DNA of 64,000 bases from Bacteroidales bacterium (GCA_017645245.1 JAGCPG010000022.1:9519-73518), one strand, 5' to 3'. Shown: positions 45,991 through 53,918, numbered from the stretch's first letter. The notes: a model not told the origin generated them from the sequence alone. A program made the numbers and translations.

Positions 45991-46244
45991 GGCAGGTTTG
46001 GGGCGGGATGAACAAGATGTGGAGCCCGTAGGGCGGAACACCTTAAAGGGTGGGATTCTTTGGGAGCGAAAGCTCAGGGTGCGGGAGCGCGCAAGGGATT
46101 GGAGGGGCTTGGTGCGAAGTGCAACGGAGCACCGAAGCGAAGCGGAGCCCCGGAAAGCCCGACCCCGACGGCCTTCGAGACACCTCTACCCTATCGACAA
46201 AAACCGGCCGGCCGGCGGGGATGCGCCCAAAAGAAAAAAAAGAG
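45991..46244 (+). repeat. G+C-rich structured repeat, copy R1 (internally deleted variant)
   Basis: It shares a 46-nt identical block (46095-46140 = 51414-51459), the left end ggcaggt(g)tttg, the ggcggaacacc(c)ttaaagggtggg module and the right end gcgcccaaa with copy R2. No credible coding frame. Confidence 0.75.
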
Positions 46245-46252
46245 TATTTTTG
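46245..46252 (+). promoter_or_regulatory. -7 promoter box (TATTTTTG) directly after repeat R1
   Basis: tatttttg lies 25 nt upstream of ATG 46277. Confidence 0.45.
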
Positions 46253-46276
46253 TCACGACAGAAGATAAAACACCCT

Positions 46277-47434
46277 ATGGGCATCATCAAGTATAAACGA
46301 GCGAAAAACGACAACGATGAAATCGTAAACATCGAAGAAGTCACACCTGAGATAAGGAAAGCGAATAAGTTTACCTGTATTTCGTGTGGACAAGAGTTGT
46401 CGGCATGCCTTGGGAGCAAAAACCAACATCACTTCAGGCACAAAACCGAAGTGGATTGCAACATTGAGACCTATCTTCATAAAATGGGCAAATATACTTT
46501 TGTAAAAGCCTATACCGAATGCCTTGCCAAAGGAAAACCATTCATTATTACCTTAAAGCGGAAAGTGTCTTGTGTGAAAGAAGGAAACTGTCAGGTTAGA
46601 CACTATTATGGCAGCTATCCAGATGTATGCAACACATACGGATGGGAGGACTTTGATCTGACACAATACTATGATAGCGTTGCTGAAGAGCAAACCGTTG
46701 GGTCTTTTGTCGCCGACATTCTTTTGAATAGTAGTAAGGGTTATCCGCCAATTCTCGTTGAAATCATGGTCTCCCATGCCTGCGAAGAGAACAAAAAACA
46801 ATCGGGCTATAGAATCATTGAGATAGAGCTTCATAAAGAAGAAGATTTGGAACTAATTGAATCATGTCAACTAAGACAATCGGAACCCACAGAAAGAGAT
46901 TACTACTTAGATATAGATAGCAGGAATACAAGAAGAAATAAAGAAAAAGCTCCAACTGTAAAATGTTACAATTTCCGTGGTGCCAAGAAGGAGTTACTGA
47001 ATTATTTTAAGGTATATCAATTTGCCATATACAAGAACAACCCTTCTCGTTTCAGCCTAAATGAAACGGTACAATGCGGAGAGAAGGATAAATTGATTGA
47101 ACGCCACCGAAAGGAGAATAACCTACTTTACGAGATATTGTTTTACAATGAAGGGTTGTGGGGTGCAGGTAGATTTGTGTTTGGTGTGGCCAAAGCCTTT
47201 GAAAGGGGTTTCAATATACGGAATTGCTTCCTATGCAGATACCACGCCAACAATGAGAATCGATTTACCCAAGAAGAAGACAAACCGTTTTTCTGCAAGT
47301 TATATAAAAAGCTACAGACCAAGCCCCAATGCAACTCCACACAAGCCATCAACTGTGATGCTTTCGTTCCCGACAAAAAAGCCTACGCCAACTATTTGTT
47401 GTTTTCAGATAGCTATGAAGAAATAACCTATTGA
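46277..47434 (+). CDS. CoiA-like family protein (Zn-ribbon plus PD-(D/E)xK-type nuclease core)
   Basis: Start MGIIKYKRAK. FTCISCGQELSACLGSKNQHHFRHKTEVDCNIETYLHKMGK matches the CoiA N-terminal C..CG.EL...HF.HK...C...H..K pattern. Core FVADILL...ILVEIMVSH. The upstream 93 codons of ORF 45998..47434 run through repeat R1 and are rejected. Confidence 0.55.
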   Translation: MGIIKYKRAKNDNDEIVNIEEVTPEIRKANKFTCISCGQELSACLGSKNQHHFRHKTEVDCNIETYLHKMGKYTFVKAYTECLAKGKPFIITLKRKVSCVKEGNCQVRHYYGSYPDVCNTYGWEDFDLTQYYDSVAEEQTVGSFVADILLNSSKGYPPILVEIMVSHACEENKKQSGYRIIEIELHKEEDLELIESCQLRQSEPTERDYYLDIDSRNTRRNKEKAPTVKCYNFRGAKKELLNYFKVYQFAIYKNNPSRFSLNETVQCGEKDKLIERHRKENNLLYEILFYNEGLWGAGRFVFGVAKAFERGFNIRNCFLCRYHANNENRFTQEEDKPFFCKLYKKLQTKPQCNSTQAINCDAFVPDKKAYANYLLFSDSYEEITY

Positions 47435-47465
47435 GGTCGTTAGTGTTCCTAATGAAAAATAATGC

Positions 47466-47473
47466 TAAATTTG
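47466..47473 (+). promoter_or_regulatory. -7 promoter box (TAAATTTG)
   Basis: taaatttg lies 22 nt upstream of ATG 47495. This favours the MTQENKD start for the Fic gene. Confidence 0.4.
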
Positions 47474-47494
47474 CACTCAGATTCCAAGCTAACA

Positions 47495-51592: not shown

Positions 51593-51630
51593 CAAAACTC
51601 ACCTTATTGTATATCCATAAGAAGTAATAT

Positions 51631-52677
51631 ATGTCATACCTTTCATTAAAGCTAATATCAATTGCTGTTTTGCTGTTATTATTGATGGTCATCCTGTTCG
51701 TGACGCATAGAGAGAATGATGAAACCTACGAAACAGATGAAGGAAACTGTGAGGATTTAAGTGTGTTTCGATTCCGAAACTGGTGGCAACGGGCAACACG
51801 TGAAGAATGTAAGCAAATGCTGATAACGGCACTTGTCAGATTCAATAAGTACCTAAAAGATGAAGACATAACGGATTATGATGTTCAGGATAGAATGATG
51901 AGGCTATTCGATAGGTTGGATGAATCGCAAAAAAATGAGATATATCCAGATGCATCCAAATTGAGCGGCTATATTAGAGGAACTGCTCGGTCATTCAGTG
52001 AAAGCCGTGAAATGTATGATTATTTTCAAAAGCAGTATGGCGAGACCGACCTTGTGGATGAAACAAAGTATCGGTATATTATGGGATATTCATTGTTCGA
52101 TGATTCTGGTGCCATTGACCATCAGAACTTTTCAAAGCTCAAAGTACTTCTTGACAAGATGAGAAAGAATTTCAAGGATGGCGATTTATGGAAAAACATC
52201 CCATTGGCCAAGAAAGCAATAAACCTCATGAAAAAGCGAGGCATATCAGTGGAAAACGAGGTTTACAAGGAGTTTTGCGAAACAGTTATCTATGAGCCTA
52301 TGCTTGATGATATGGAAACGCCACGATTGATGCTCTCGTTCATTGAGTATAACCACAAGCTTACGGGGTCTTCTGCCCCATGGGAAGACAAGGAAAAAAA
52401 GCTTAACAAGCTGATAGACCCCAGAACGACGTATAAAGAGATTTGCGACTTGATTTTGGAAGACCGCAGTCTTTTATACGACCCTGTTCAGATGACCGAA
52501 AAGTATGAAATGGTCATTTATGACGTTGAAAAAGAATGTAATGTTATGCTAAAACTCGAACCGCGCAGAATGGGTTTCTGTCATAAATACTGGTCGGTAA
52601 AAGAAAAAGCACTGGCCAAACATGGAATCATTTGGCGTTCACCGAGTGAAATGAATCCAAAAGTAAAGTTTGATTAA
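51631..52677 (+). CDS. membrane-anchored hypothetical protein
   Basis: N-terminal TM ISIAVLLLLLMVILFV. AT-rich codon usage. C-terminal block RRMGFCHKYWSVKEKALAKHGIIWRSPSEMNPKVKFD. No family recognised with certainty. Confidence 0.5.
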   Translation: MSYLSLKLISIAVLLLLLMVILFVTHRENDETYETDEGNCEDLSVFRFRNWWQRATREECKQMLITALVRFNKYLKDEDITDYDVQDRMMRLFDRLDESQKNEIYPDASKLSGYIRGTARSFSESREMYDYFQKQYGETDLVDETKYRYIMGYSLFDDSGAIDHQNFSKLKVLLDKMRKNFKDGDLWKNIPLAKKAINLMKKRGISVENEVYKEFCETVIYEPMLDDMETPRLMLSFIEYNHKLTGSSAPWEDKEKKLNKLIDPRTTYKEICDLILEDRSLLYDPVQMTEKYEMVIYDVEKECNVMLKLEPRRMGFCHKYWSVKEKALAKHGIIWRSPSEMNPKVKFD

Positions 52678-52707
52678 AAACACAAGAAATCCAGGACAAA
52701 GAATTCC

Positions 52708-53184
52708 ATGAAGATCATCTTTCTTGATTTCGACGGTGTGATGGATACTGCCTATCATGGCCATGTCCTTGGAAAAGAAGGACTCCCCTGTCAAGATGAA
52801 TTTGGGGCTGTCTTTGACCCAAATTGCGTTAGGTACCTGAAAGAAATTATCGACAAGACTGGAGCCGAAATAGTCATTACGTCTTCATGGAAGTCTCTGA
52901 TGACATATAAGGAACTGCTTAACATGTGGGGACAGAGAGCCCTGCCTGGTAACGTGATAGACATGACACCTTCGACACCAGAATGTAGGCGACGAGGTGA
53001 CGAAATAGATGCTTGGTTGAAAGAATGCAATGAGGATTGTCAATACGTTATACTTGACGACATCGACGAAAGCAACTTCAATACACATCAGATAGCGAAT
53101 TTGATTGTCGTCAAACCCTATTATGGACTCGATGCCAGAGCTGCGGAAAGAGCAATTAAAATACTTGAAGGAAGGAAGGCTTAA
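52708..53184 (+). CDS. stand-alone HAD-like phosphatase (resembles the HAD domain of Swiss-Army-Knife RNA-repair proteins)
   Basis: MKIIFLDFDGVM (DxDG motif I), IVITSSWK (motif II), YVILDDID (motif IV). 158 aa. Family assignment is from memory. Confidence 0.55.
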   Translation: MKIIFLDFDGVMDTAYHGHVLGKEGLPCQDEFGAVFDPNCVRYLKEIIDKTGAEIVITSSWKSLMTYKELLNMWGQRALPGNVIDMTPSTPECRRRGDEIDAWLKECNEDCQYVILDDIDESNFNTHQIANLIVVKPYYGLDARAAERAIKILEGRKA

Positions 53185-53630
53185 CGGGACTTGAAATAAT
53201 CCACGACAGCAGACCAATCGGGGAATTGATCGCTGCCGAAAGCAATTAGCTCACCCTCGAAATCAGCAGCACCGTTCTTGGCACGGTCATCTATGAGATA
53301 ATCGCCACGGTTAAGGTCTTTATGATGAGTAAGAATAAGACGCTTATAGGCTACATCACCAAGATACTTTTGCACCCATAGGAGTTTGTCGGACCAGGCA
53401 GAAGGATTCTTCCATGGAGCGGTTGAGAGGATATAGACATCGAAATGATCGGCAAGATATCGATAGGCCTCTATAGCACCTTTCAAGGGAGCCATTAAAG
53501 AAAAGATACCTGGTACTTCATCCAACCTACCTTCATAAGCATCCTTGGTTTCTTTAGACAGATGAGGGAAAGCAGAAAAGAAATCGACTAGAACATTGTC
53601 CATGTCAACGTAAATGATTTGTCTATTCAT
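53181..53630 (-). CDS. 5'(3')-deoxyribonucleotidase (NT5C family, HAD superfamily)
   Basis: IIYVDMDNVLVDF (DxDxV motif I), ILSTAPW, YLIDDR. 149 aa. Confidence 0.7.
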   Translation of the reverse strand: MNRQIIYVDMDNVLVDFFSAFPHLSKETKDAYEGRLDEVPGIFSLMAPLKGAIEAYRYLADHFDVYILSTAPWKNPSAWSDKLLWVQKYLGDVAYKRLILTHHKDLNRGDYLIDDRAKNGAADFEGELIAFGSDQFPDWSAVVDYFKSR

Positions 53631-53691
53631 AAGAAGATAGTATTTGAAAGCAAAGATAATGGTTTTGAAAAAACGACCCCATGAATAAAAA

Positions 53692-53918
53692 GTTTGACTG
53701 GGGTGCGGCTGGTGGCATTGGCTGCGGAGGGAAGCGGAGTGGCGGGCGGCAGAGTCGCCCGCCGTGAAGCAACCAAAGCAGCGGATGCCACCAGCTTAGG
53801 CTTGTGGGCGGGCGGGATTAACAAGATGTGGAGCTCTCTGACGAAGCCTAGAGATTGGGATGGCTGTGTGGGATGGCGGAAGGCTGCGGCAGAGGGCGGA
53901 ACTCCTTAATTGGGTGGG
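53692..53918 (+). repeat. G+C-rich structured repeat, copy R3 (left half only; ends at the stop codon of the esterase gene)
   Basis: gtttgactggggtgcggctggtggcattggctgcgg... aligns with 51089-51250 of R2. Helices at 53708-53718/53785-53795 and 53741-53747/53757-53763. It ends with the ggcggaactccttaattgggtggg module. Confidence 0.7.

Follow-up and report, generated by a model that had tools for sequence, protein, structure and literature searches.

Features of the locus

The window, a stretch of 64,000 nt from a Bacteroidales bacterium, contains three hairpin-rich repeats, R1, R2 and R3, with blocks of protein-coding genes between them (Table 1). We take TAnnTTTG to be the consensus of the Bacteroidetes −7 promoter box, to which TATTTTTG conforms. 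The box 3′ of R2 belongs to a 34-nt promoter-region repeat, whose second copy is at 49724-49757. A minus-strand gene (53922-54497) has its stop codon 4 nt past the end of R3. A syntenic short LE lies 3′ of the M15 gene in two related loci (L012, L040), as in R1, and the string GAAAGYUCAGGGUGCGG from the R1 spacer region also precedes an isolated E3 in a third (L010).

Table 1. Repeats, their helices and the adjoining genes, in window coordinates.
Feature	Position	Strand	Remark
M15 peptidase gene	45545-45907		Pfam
Terminator-like hairpin TCCCAG..CTGGGA with T-run	45946-45974	+	Read from sequence; 3′ of M15 peptidase gene, directly before R1
R1 short LE	45985-46054	+	Without helix-1 domain; 5′ boundary CCGGCAGG
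R1 core	46005-46025	+	
R1 4-bp helix	46024-46034	+	GCCC/GGGC
R1 hairpin D	46039-46052	+	CACCU/GGGUG
R1 spacer hairpin	46064-46075	+	GAGC-GAAA-GCUC, GNRA-type loop, between LE and E3; read from sequence
R1 E3 domain	46077-46232	+	Start GGGUGCGG, end GCGCCCAAA
R1 E3 closing helix	46089-46093/46222-46226	+	
R1 E3 hairpin GGUGC/GCACC	within 46077-46232	+	Carries the 13-nt loop
R1 helix 4	46104-46109/46146-46151	+	In E3
R1 helix 5	46163-46173/46210-46220	+	In E3
−7 box TATTTTTG	46245-46252	+	For downstream cassette; after E3, not before the repeat
Cassette block 1	46277-51050		CoiA_N-like protein, Fic (SoFic), nitroreductase, 147-aa gene (minus strand), radical SAM
R2 LE	51080-51385	+	
R2 helix 1	51105-51115/51203-51213	+	
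R2 helix next to helix 1	within 51080-51385	+	GCUGC/GCAGC
R2 helix 2	51139-51147/51171-51179	+	
R2 core	51232-51252	+	
R2 helix base after core	51251-51255/51361-51365	+	Bears the long variable stem
R2 hairpin D	51370-51383	+	
R2 E3 domain	51398-51551	+	GUGCGG ... GCGCCCAAA
−7-type box TATCTTTG	51585-51592	+	3′ of R2
Cassette block 2	51631-53630		348-aa protein, HAD_SAK_2 protein, NT5C nucleotidase (minus strand)
R3	53692-53918	+	LE without E3
R3 helix 1	53708-53718/53785-53795	+	
R3 helix 2	53741-53747/53757-53763	+	
R3 core	53814-53834	+	
R3 helix after core	53833-53840/53890-53897	+	
R3 hairpin D	53912-53918	+	Position is that of its terminal GGGTGGG

Composition of the repeat element

R1, R2 and R3 are copies of a previously undescribed, modular non-coding element made of two parts. 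LE, the 5′ part, ends in a 21-nt core (GGGATNAACAAGNTGTGGAGC), which leads into a helix of any length and then a small hairpin; E3, the 3′ part, runs from UGCGGNAGCGCGC to GCGCCCAAA. R1 consists of a short LE plus E3, R2 of LE plus E3, and R3 of LE alone, so that the first LE of the array is without its 5′ domain and the last is without E3. The core occurs three times in the window against an expectation of 0.02, and an nhmmer search of the 64 kb returned exactly three LE cores and two E3 domains. All three copies lie inside 8 kb, with none in the remaining 56 kb. They are regarded as non-coding because the indels between them are not multiples of three.

The element measures 230-640 nt and has several hairpins per copy, each flanked by AGCGGAG...AGCGGAR, while the helix-1 domain is flanked by GUGCGG...GUGCGG. 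Purine-rich symmetric internal loops, in which AGCGGAG stands opposite AGCGGAR, and a 13-nt terminal loop (GRAGNNNNRCGRA) are conserved.

At the gathering threshold, Rfam 15 identified two tRNAs and nothing else in the window, and none of its families matched the repeats. A permissive scan of 45800-54100 gave chance-level matches only (E > 1), and the related loci had no match to the covariance models. ROOL, GOLLD, OLE, HEARO, IS605-orfB RNAs and ribozymes were rejected since no covariance model scored at the gathering threshold; for ROOL, GOLLD, OLE and HEARO nothing matched even with E allowed up to 10.

Genomic setting

In rumen Bacteroidales, the elements occupy a genomic island, where they sit between anti-phage defence cassettes. 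They were found at only one locus per genome, always co-oriented and 3′ of a conserved block (lipoprotein, DUF6266, SNase, M15 peptidase), with a variable cassette region downstream. When 185,579 species genomes were scanned, three MAGs each had all their true family copies at a single locus. The neighbours at every locus are defence or toxin-antitoxin genes; McrBC, GmrSD, AbiE, HEPN/MNT, SoFic, KAP NTPase and type I R-M are among the flanking cassettes, which have been acquired independently. In several genomes the conserved block adjoins a tyrosine integrase gene. An IntDOT-like enzyme of this kind is encoded about 3-5 kb upstream in four loci (L040, L084, L086, L088). Neither the window nor L082 has it, and no recombinase was found among the window ORFs scanned in 29-61 kb.

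Conservation of base pairing

An earlier note on this DNA had claimed that the differences between the three copies are compensatory. On re-reading, all of its arms and positions were correct, including a C:G to U:A swap in helix 1 between R2 and R3 and the wobbles T53835 with G53895 and G51262 with T51354. In the same helix, a G.A mismatch of R2 is a G-C pair in R3. To examine covariation we added about 15 copies found in assemblies of rumen Bacteroidales. They represent three or more MAG species and are related to each other, and their arms were aligned on hand-placed anchors. Double changes recurred in independent copies, which bears out the general claim.

Helix 1 with the next 5 bp (n = 11 sequences) was 93.8% paired, with double changes at three pairs and a covariation score of 0.148 against 0.088 when shuffled (0/500 shuffles as high). 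For 11 types, the base of the helix that follows the core was 92.5% paired versus 76.7% (0/500 shuffles). The long variable stem (n = 6) reached 98.9%, with double changes at four pairs; 0/500 shuffles equalled its percentage paired, its double-change cells or its covariation score, and 5/500 its count of double-change pairs. The wobble G51262.U51354 was retained in five of these six sequences. Helix 5 (6 types) was 87.9% paired versus 70.9%. Thus, pairing in these four helices exceeds both column shuffles and slid-partner controls, in which it fell to 16-63%.

These results bear on whether the stems are chance hairpins of G+C-rich DNA, or recent recombinants without selection on pairing. R1 and the isolated E3 copies show no folding advantage over their shuffled versions (z about 0), and helix 5 holds 54-56% pairing with its partners slid by three columns because its arm is GC-repetitive. 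However, no shuffle (0/500) reached the observed pairing or covariation score in the four separate helices, the homologues span several species, and the R1-R3-family copies are not recent, given identities of 74-82%. This explanation is largely refuted for LE, and overall we consider it highly improbable. The pairing is maintained by compensating mutations and kept by selection, and the plus strand folds into rod-like hairpins.

The other helices named in the earlier note were less telling. The helix 2 stems of R2 and R3 are both intact, but whole modules have been replaced or inserted there, which partly agrees with the note's own alternative of recombinant hairpins. In helix 4, R1 and R2 differ at one terminal pair only and are uninformative; an invariant GGGCUU/AAGCCC pairing is equally possible. 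For helix 5, pairing above chance stands, although much of the difference between R1 and R2 is a 1-nt register shift in the repetitive arm.

Identity of the folded strand

G-U wobbles are far commoner than A-C mismatches, which identifies the plus strand as the folded one. The long stem has 13 G.U cells and no A.C, and helix 1 has seven wobble cells against two A.C. The plus strand was more stable in 17/17 copies, G.U making up 13.8% of its pairs versus 6.7% on the minus strand, and within the repeats AGCGGAR, GUGCGG and the 13-nt loop are found on the plus strand only. The earlier note had taken the wobbles as a weak argument for plus-strand transcription; they do point to this strand, but they also fit folded plus-strand single-stranded DNA. 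Counting against an RNA, hairpin D variants show A.C instead of G.U, and the z-scores against shuffles are similar for both strands.

Gain and loss of modules

Comparison of two orthologous loci (L009, L043) revealed a clean 73-nt indel of helix 2 with GCGGAG/GTGGAG flanks, and in L011 and L013C further modules are nested inside helix 2. The element therefore grows and shrinks by whole hairpin modules bounded by short direct repeats of the GCGGAG type, and for helix 2 and the variable hairpin the differences come from insertion or replacement of modules, not from point compensation.

Such a pattern would also be left by selfish, MITE-like palindromic modules without host function, inserting into one another at targets of the GCGGAG/GUGCGG type. 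They would accumulate in a gene-poor region, and their pairing would be kept for hairpin-dependent mobility or because the copies are young. The indel, the nesting and the motifs around every hairpin all agree with this, as do R1 and L012, which resemble the empty state of the helix-1 domain with its GUGCGG borders. Moreover, R2 is 92.7% identical to the L010 copy of another genome and only 73.8% to R3 in its own, and other hairpin repeats, in viral contigs, have a related loop motif (GCGAAGTGCAACGGAGC). However, the flanking "duplication" shows the same motif every time and may itself belong to the module, and neither a transposase nor dispersal was found among these elements, which are clustered in the window and restricted to a single locus per genome. 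Their orientation is constant, whereas random orientation is expected of MITE insertions. The excess of wobbles on a single strand, the double compensatory changes and the invariant unpaired motifs point to purifying selection and not to palindrome decay. We judge a purely selfish origin unlikely.

Possible roles of the element

Among the explanations considered, we favour, tentatively, that the element acts as a structured RNA. The GNRA hairpin of R1, the purine-rich internal loops and the conserved 13-nt loop are RNA-like. Seven LE copies (R1, R2, L009, L012, L013B, L027a, L031) lie 3′ of a co-oriented gene, with 5-50 nt between stop codon and LE; in R1 and L012 the gap is ~77-100 nt and contains a terminator-like hairpin. 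The element would be transcribed by read-through from a co-oriented upstream gene or non-coding module; we saw no promoter of its own, and by eye no TAnnTTTG box upstream of LE. The folded rods might work in cis as stable 3′ or intergenic structures that protect the upstream message, and might insulate neighbouring, often toxic, cassettes from each other. REP/BIME and BOX repeats are thought to work as stabilising or insulating structures at such positions. Alternatively, the modules may be parts of a larger ornate RNA.

Related genomes contain further modules that speak for the RNA reading. MNC, a sister module of about 420 nt, is a multi-helix structure closed by long-range helices; two or more Watson-Crick types occur at 22/95 of its pairs, and G.U exceeds A.C by 87 to 17. 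In L088, BNC (about 1.2 kb), MNC, LE and E3 follow one another in this order over about 2.9 kb of contiguous, gene-free sequence, in the orientation of the M15 gene. Against the same reading, E3 is not a canonical terminator, since no U-run follows it. LE ends in GGGUGGG and E3 in the A-rich GCGCCCAAAAGAAAA, and an intrinsic (Rho-independent) terminator was rejected. In addition, five intact LE copies (R3, L010A, the short LE in L010, L027b, L043) are directly preceded by a reverse-oriented gene, so that there is no obvious source of plus-strand transcription there, though the stems are intact.

The folding may instead serve the DNA: while the island is being transferred or replicated, the plus strand would fold wherever it is single-stranded. 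It would then act either as an attC-like site at which cassettes recombine in and out or, like Frpo and ssi in plasmid leading regions, as a signal for priming or expression. More than 30 modules share one orientation within their locus, whatever the orientation of the genes, which fits a polarity at the DNA level better. The elements stand exactly at cassette boundaries: homology to four strain variants (L076, L078, L079, L080) ends exactly at 46232, the last base of R1 E3; R1 and L012 are alike left of and up to the core and different after it; L012 and L031 are alike to its right, including the HEPN/MNT cassette, and not to its left. Reverse-strand cassettes lie between LE and E3 in L013B, L031 and L010. 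The incomplete first and last LE, the upstream tyrosine integrase and the UmuC-like, FtsK-like and VirE-like genes in relatives also agree with it. Frpo elements are themselves co-oriented folded single-stranded DNA, with several candidates in some leading-region islands (PMC11541004).

However, no IntI-type or other dedicated recombinase adjoins the arrays, and by eye there are no attC R/L boxes and no −33/−7 promoter boxes within the stems. The cassettes are multi-gene, with their own promoters and in either orientation, unlike integron or leading-region genes, and three MNC modules occur in tandem without cargo between them. Breakpoints at module edges are expected of any conserved island in variable DNA, and the G.T pair, conserved in these stems, is weaker in DNA. 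A single-stranded DNA signal seems to us only slightly less likely than an RNA.

More broadly, LE and E3 could be parts of a larger system, several kilobases long and so far undescribed, whose non-coding modules fold on the plus strand of an integrase-associated island and serve as a docking platform for the gain, loss and exchange of defence cassettes; we consider this less likely than not. Such a system might be one giant ornate RNA that cassettes interrupt, or a set of attC/Frpo-like single-stranded DNA sites working without an integron integrase. Integrons, satellite hotspots and conserved flanking core genes are the known ways in which defence islands are assembled and kept modular; here, unrelated defence systems are joined at one conserved family of strand-specifically folded elements, which pass from species to species, sometimes along with their neighbours and sometimes alone. 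If the elements are recombination or transfer signals, they would represent a new cassette system in Bacteroidales, where to our knowledge integron-like systems are little described. If they are RNAs, they would be new classes of large ornate RNA tied to mobile DNA; Rfam lacks three of the four module types. In both cases, they offer a practical means of locating defence cargo in rumen metagenomes.

Comparison with known systems

Frpo/ssi promoters of plasmid leading regions are likewise folded and orientation-dependent, and a mobile element can have more than one of them among its defence-related genes (PMC11541004). As for the present family, UmuC-like genes lie close by in relatives. Frpo elements carry promoter hexamers in a long stem, and the fold mimics a double-stranded promoter (PMC11541004). 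Compared by features alone, with no sequence similarity apparent, our elements differ in having no TTTG or TAnnTTTG in the stems, the boxes lying outside the elements (46245-46252, 51585-51592); neighbouring genes are on both strands, and no oriT or relaxase was seen. They were not assigned to this class.

Integron attC arrays also consist of co-oriented, strand-specifically folded repeats at cassette boundaries, with structure conserved above sequence, a central stem of variable length, defence and toxin-antitoxin cargo, and partial first and last sites. The present arrays differ in that IntI, attI, Pc and R″/L″-L′/R′ boxes are absent, each element has many hairpins and 3-10 times the length of an attC site, and the cassettes differ as described above. 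An attC site is a single imperfect hairpin of 57-141 nt with RYYYAAC ... GTTRRRY, to which GATAAAC, GCGGAAC and their complements do not conform; this assignment was rejected, as was that of an integron array, since no IntI-type recombinase with attI lies beside the repeats.

ROOL, GOLLD, OLE and HEARO are similar in being large, multi-hairpin, of rumen origin, associated with mobile DNA and near tRNA genes. Besides scoring with none of their models, our elements form partial or split copies with genes inserted between domains, and we know of no such copies in these RNAs.

Mosaic extragenic repeats include E. coli REP/BIME, pneumococcal BOX (boxA-boxB(n)-boxC) and Neisseria NIME/dRS3. These exist in tens to hundreds of dispersed copies per genome in both orientations, whereas the R1-R3 family occupies one island, co-oriented, so that membership among the dispersed REP/BIME, BOX and ERIC-type repeats was rejected. 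Its members also reach 250-700 nt, carry unpaired motifs that do not vary and have no sequence in common with those repeats. In architecture, the two are alike: both are intergenic modular mosaics of imperfect extragenic palindromes, with a conserved 5′ module, a variable count of internal hairpin modules and a 3′ module, forming stable stem-loops often just past the 3′ end of a gene and occurring also as partial copies.

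Anatomy and Distribution of the Repeat Family

The three copies of the hairpin-rich repeat, R1, R2 and R3, share the core GGGATNAACAAGNTGTGGAGC, which occurs three times in the window against 0.02 expected. R3 corresponds to the 5' two thirds of R2, and R1 to the 3' third and a short central segment of R2. The element has two parts, a 5' domain (LE) and a 3' domain (E3), each also found separately; with nhmmer profiles, the 64 kb yielded the core three times and the 3' domain twice, and no more. The gene caller places a 131-aa ORF across R2, a coding reading that was ruled out by frame-breaking indels among the copies.

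LE starts at CCRCCGGCAGG. Its optional helix-1 domain consists of helix 1 (11 bp), a 2x2 loop and a 5-bp helix (GCUGC/GCAGC), which encloses a 13-nt loop (GRAGNNNNRCGRA) in some copies and helix 2 with nested hairpins in others. After this domain comes the core, and then a variable helix that begins directly 3' of GUGGA, stops directly 5' of GGAAC and ranges from 4 bp (R1 and locus L013B; L-numbers denote the contigs or loci compared) to more than 100 nt. The last part of LE is a small hairpin, D, which ends in GGGUGGG. E3 extends from UGCGGNAGCGCGCRAGGGAUUGGAGGGGCUUGGUG to GCGCCCAAA.

Between the orthologous loci L009 and L043, helix 2 shows a clean indel of 73 nt with the flanks GCGGAG/GTGGAG. 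AGCGGAG...AGCGGAR brackets all internal hairpins and GUGCGG...GUGCGG the helix-1 domain, for which R1 and L012 resemble empty sites. These indels and brackets would be accounted for by a selfish nest of hairpin modules. We consider this reading unlikely; it leaves the single locus, the single orientation and the wobble excess on one strand unaccounted for.

All family members returned by exact-pattern scans of 185,579 species genomes and of JGI metagenomes came from Bacteroidales MAGs of rumen or cecum and from rumen metagenomes. More divergent copies were added through contigs encoding homologues of the upstream M15 peptidase, and about 15 distinct copies were assembled in total. R2 is 92.7% identical to a copy in another genome and 73.8% identical to R3 in the same genome. 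A phage origin was rejected: pattern scans of IMG/VR found no family members in viral contigs, BLAST of R2 against 50,697 phage records gave no match, and the first 41 kb of the window are ordinary chromosomal DNA in gene content. A known RNA family was likewise rejected, with no Rfam match for R1-R3 in the window even at E up to 10, nor in the related loci; we found no published description of the repeat in the literature.

The sole yield of the IMG/VR scans was an unrelated hairpin repeat (gtcattctga...cgaagaatc), tandem in those contigs, which differs from the LE/E3 family and shares the loop motif GCGAAGTGCAACGGAGC with it. It is possible that the 13-nt loop is a motif spread more widely among Bacteroidetes.

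Features in the window and on the contigs compared (positions are those of the named sequence)
Feature	Sequence	Position	Remark
R1	window	45985-46232	related non-coding stretch; short LE + E3
R2	window	51080-51551	related non-coding stretch; full LE + E3
R3	window	53692-53918	related non-coding stretch; LE only
tRNA-Ser + tRNA-Pro	window	41568-41769	identities presumed from L076 (99.9% identical here)
Conserved block	window	42395-45907	157-aa lipoprotein, 84-aa gene, 1-4 DUF6266 paralogues, SNase, M15 peptidase
Swapped segment	window	46233-47456	plus-strand CoiA_N-like gene
Swapped segment	L076	10689-11772	reverse-strand 342-aa gene
34-nt direct repeat	window	49724-49757, 51560-51593	85% identical
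41-nt tandem repeat	window	48288-48365	73% identical; 3' part of Fic gene
BNC	L082	10364-11640	
BNC	L084	10430-11633	
BNC	L086	10439-10708, 11334-12170	
BNC	L088	10364-11654	
BNC	L089	1000-2511	
BNC	L090	10651-11794	
MNC	L086	12280-12700	
MNC	L089	4407-4853, 4915-5338, 5529-5951	
MNC	L088	12095-12540	
MNC	L082	13567-13985	
MNC	L084	11676-12133, 13770-14214	
MNC	L011	1372-1816	
MNC	L019	2509-2956	
Iteron-like 8-mers	L019	2725-2738	
Iteron-like 8-mers	L084	14298-14311	
Iteron-like 8-mers	L086	12218-12231	
Iteron-like 8-mers	L088	12012-12025	
Cargo of transferable-element types	L082	11626-13608	
Cargo of transferable-element types	L089	1260-4448, 8578-10101	
Cargo of transferable-element types	L084	15162-18076	
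GCGAAGTGCAACGGAGC	L002	12196	viral contig
GCGAAGTGCAACGGAGC	L005	4349, 4849	viral contig

Covariation and Base Pairing

Helix arms of related sequences were aligned by hand on invariant flanks and the pairs were counted. These counts are strong indications from hand-anchored related sequences, not R-scape statistics.

Pairing and double changes in the helices, compared with shuffles
Helix	Sample	Cells paired	Shuffled	Double changes	Shuffles as high
Helix 1 + 5-bp helix	11 sequences	93.8%	90.7%	3 pairs, 6 cells	0/500
Base of helix after core	11 types	92.5%	76.7%	9 cells	0/500
Long stem of R2-type hairpin	6 sequences	98.9%	96.4%	4 pairs	0/500
Helix 5	6 types	87.9%	70.9%	5 pairs	0/500

The earlier note had claimed that differences between the copies are compensatory and preserve pairing. 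Its arm and wobble coordinates are all correct in the sequence, and the claim holds for helices 1 and 5. The variable pair of helix 1 is C-G, U-A, G.U or U.G among copies, and its neighbour G-C, C-G, G.A or A.G; when the partners were slid as a control, pairing fell to 16-63%. For helix 5 the pairing exceeds that of shuffles, but a 1-nt register shift makes up much of what separates R1 from R2 there. The claim is not supported for helices 2 and 4. Helix 2 keeps GGCG/CGCC in every copy, but its interior is swapped or extended rather than changed by point compensation, and in helix 4 a single terminal pair differs and an invariant competing partner exists. Position 3 of the base of the helix after the core is C-G, G-C, U.G or G.U, and A-U in the divergent L088.

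RNAalifold on eight E3 copies gave a long-range closing helix, GCGCR/YGCGC, whose last pair covaries (G-C in four copies, A-U in three, G.U in one); within E3, covariation is limited to this pair and helix 5. E3 as a stable fold was rejected (z about 0), and neither R1 nor the isolated E3 copies surpassed shuffles in folding (z -1.1 to +1.5). One global fold, in which the 5' end of LE pairs with the 3' end of E3, was also discarded, as it competes with helix 1 and is unsupported by the separated copies.

The Folded Strand

The plus strand of R2 had a folding energy of -229 kcal/mol (z -5.2), compared with -185 kcal/mol (z -3.1) for its minus strand. The plus strand was more stable in 17/17 copies, and G.U accounted for 13.8% of plus-strand pairs and 6.7% of minus-strand pairs. 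Because z-scores are similar on both strands, this stability and G.U excess are partly due to base composition, and the strand call by folding energy alone was replaced by counts of wobble and A.C cells in conserved helices. Helix 1 had 7 wobble cells against 2 A.C, and the long stem 13 against 0, with G51262.U51354 kept in five of six copies; hairpin D showed the opposite trend (1 against 3, counted by eye). Within the repeats, AGCGGAR, GUGCGG and the 13-nt loop occur on the plus strand only. As judged from the sequences, this asymmetry and the plus-only motifs argue that the folded strand is plus, as RNA or as ssDNA. The wobbles had been taken as a weak argument for plus-strand transcription; they do mark the folded strand, but an ssDNA fold is also compatible with them. 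We conclude that the repeat family is real, plus-strand-folded, modular and under selection for pairing.

Sister Modules in Relatives

In relatives, the region 3' of the M15 gene holds additional conserved gene-free modules, in the order BNC, one to three MNC, a large LE and, in some cases, a piece resembling E3. In L088 the BNC, MNC and LE modules are contiguous (~2.9 kb); elsewhere cassettes lie between modules. BNC is a conserved, gene-free, G-rich block of ~1.2 kb directly 3' of the M15 gene, the position of R1 in the window; in L086 and L089 it is interrupted by small genes. It contains tandem GGGUGGNGGUGGGGA...GGAGCGAAGCG modules, and its end pattern, GGAACACC...GGGUGGG UUGUGCGG, is the same as that of LE. 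MNC is a structured module of ~420 nt with long-range closing helices and up to three tandem copies. Its consensus has 95 pairs, of which 22 show at least two Watson-Crick types, and G.U cells number 87 against 17 A.C. Neither module has an Rfam match, and neither is present in the window.

In some relatives, an A+T-rich stretch shortly before MNC or LE contains iteron-like tandem 8-mers (CGTGCTAA CGTGCTAT CGTGCT..), which are absent from the window. They could be protein-binding sites.

Chromosomal Setting and Defence Cassettes

Ordinary chromosomal genes (e.g., YidC, GAPDH, HtrA, ClpB, TrkH) fill the first 41 kb of the window. The repeat region comes after the conserved block, which is kept in many relatives. 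This block adjoins both tRNAs in the window, the strain variant L076 and L082, and a tyrosine integrase of 466-500 aa in L040, L084, L086 and L088; its placement suggests that it belongs to a mobile island, with the integrase lost from the version in the window. Target-gene duplication through tandem integration into an RNA gene was rejected, since the order short LE + E3, full element, LE only is at odds with attL/attR logic. A repeat of the tRNA 3' end was searched for and none was found.

In every locus, defence or toxin-antitoxin systems lie between or beside the elements: SoFic-type Fic, CoiA_N-like protein, radical SAM and HAD/NT5C in the window, McrBC (L013), GmrSD and HEPN/MNT (L031), AbiEi/AbiEii twice (L027), KAP NTPase (L009), SIR2 (L020), type I R-M (L019), an E2-E1-JAB fusion and DUF3800 (L043), Schlafen and RT (L084), and AbiE (L086). 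All modules of a locus are co-oriented, in the orientation of the M15 gene wherever it is present; cassette genes have both orientations. The repeat family is confined to cassette junctions of one variable island.

The 34-nt direct repeat carries a -7-type box (TATCTTTG) and precedes the radical SAM gene as well as a 348-aa gene, which points to two cassettes with a common promoter module. The 41-nt tandem repeat codes for a repeated KMVDK.. peptide segment. G+C content is ~52% in 1-46 kb, ~45% in 46-54 kb and 36-41% in 54-64 kb. This last stretch, with minus-strand genes for UPF0227, a transglutaminase-like protein, a 998-aa PBP1-like protein and unknowns, may be additional foreign cargo. As far as the window extends, R3 has no E3 downstream of it. 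Cargo in relatives includes a UmuC-like polymerase (IMS) with a 132-133 aa partner, an HTH_17 excisionase-like gene, an FtsK/SpoIIIE-like gene, a reverse transcriptase and a VirE-N-like gene, all types typical of transferable elements.

Junction Behaviour and Possible Function

In strain variants of the same species as the window (96-99.9% identical), an unrelated reverse-strand gene takes the place of the first gene after R1. Homology ends at 46232, the last E3 base, and is back at 47457 at about 90%. In L076 the identity is 99.9% left of the swap and about 90% right of it, and its 342-aa gene has a faint DUF7828 match. R1 and L012 have a common M15 flank up to the core and diverge beyond it; L012 and L031 are common after the core, including the HEPN/MNT cassette, and different before it. 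L013B, L031 and L010 carry reverse-strand cassettes between LE and E3. Breakpoints at element edges are partly expected, because the elements are conserved islands in variable DNA. No strain polymorphism was found at R2/R3, where 6/6 contigs with the neighbouring gene had the same layout.

A structured RNA is the candidate reading that we tentatively favour, because of the RNA-type motifs, the wobble content, the MNC architecture and the seven copies closely downstream of a co-oriented gene. However, no promoter is visible, and some intact copies lie next to an upstream gene that is oriented away from them. The repeat could also, with somewhat lower probability, be an attC-type or Frpo/ssi-type ssDNA signal (PMC11541004), which would account for the uniform orientation and the junction behaviour. 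Neither a recombinase nor the boxes that define such sites were found with the repeat.
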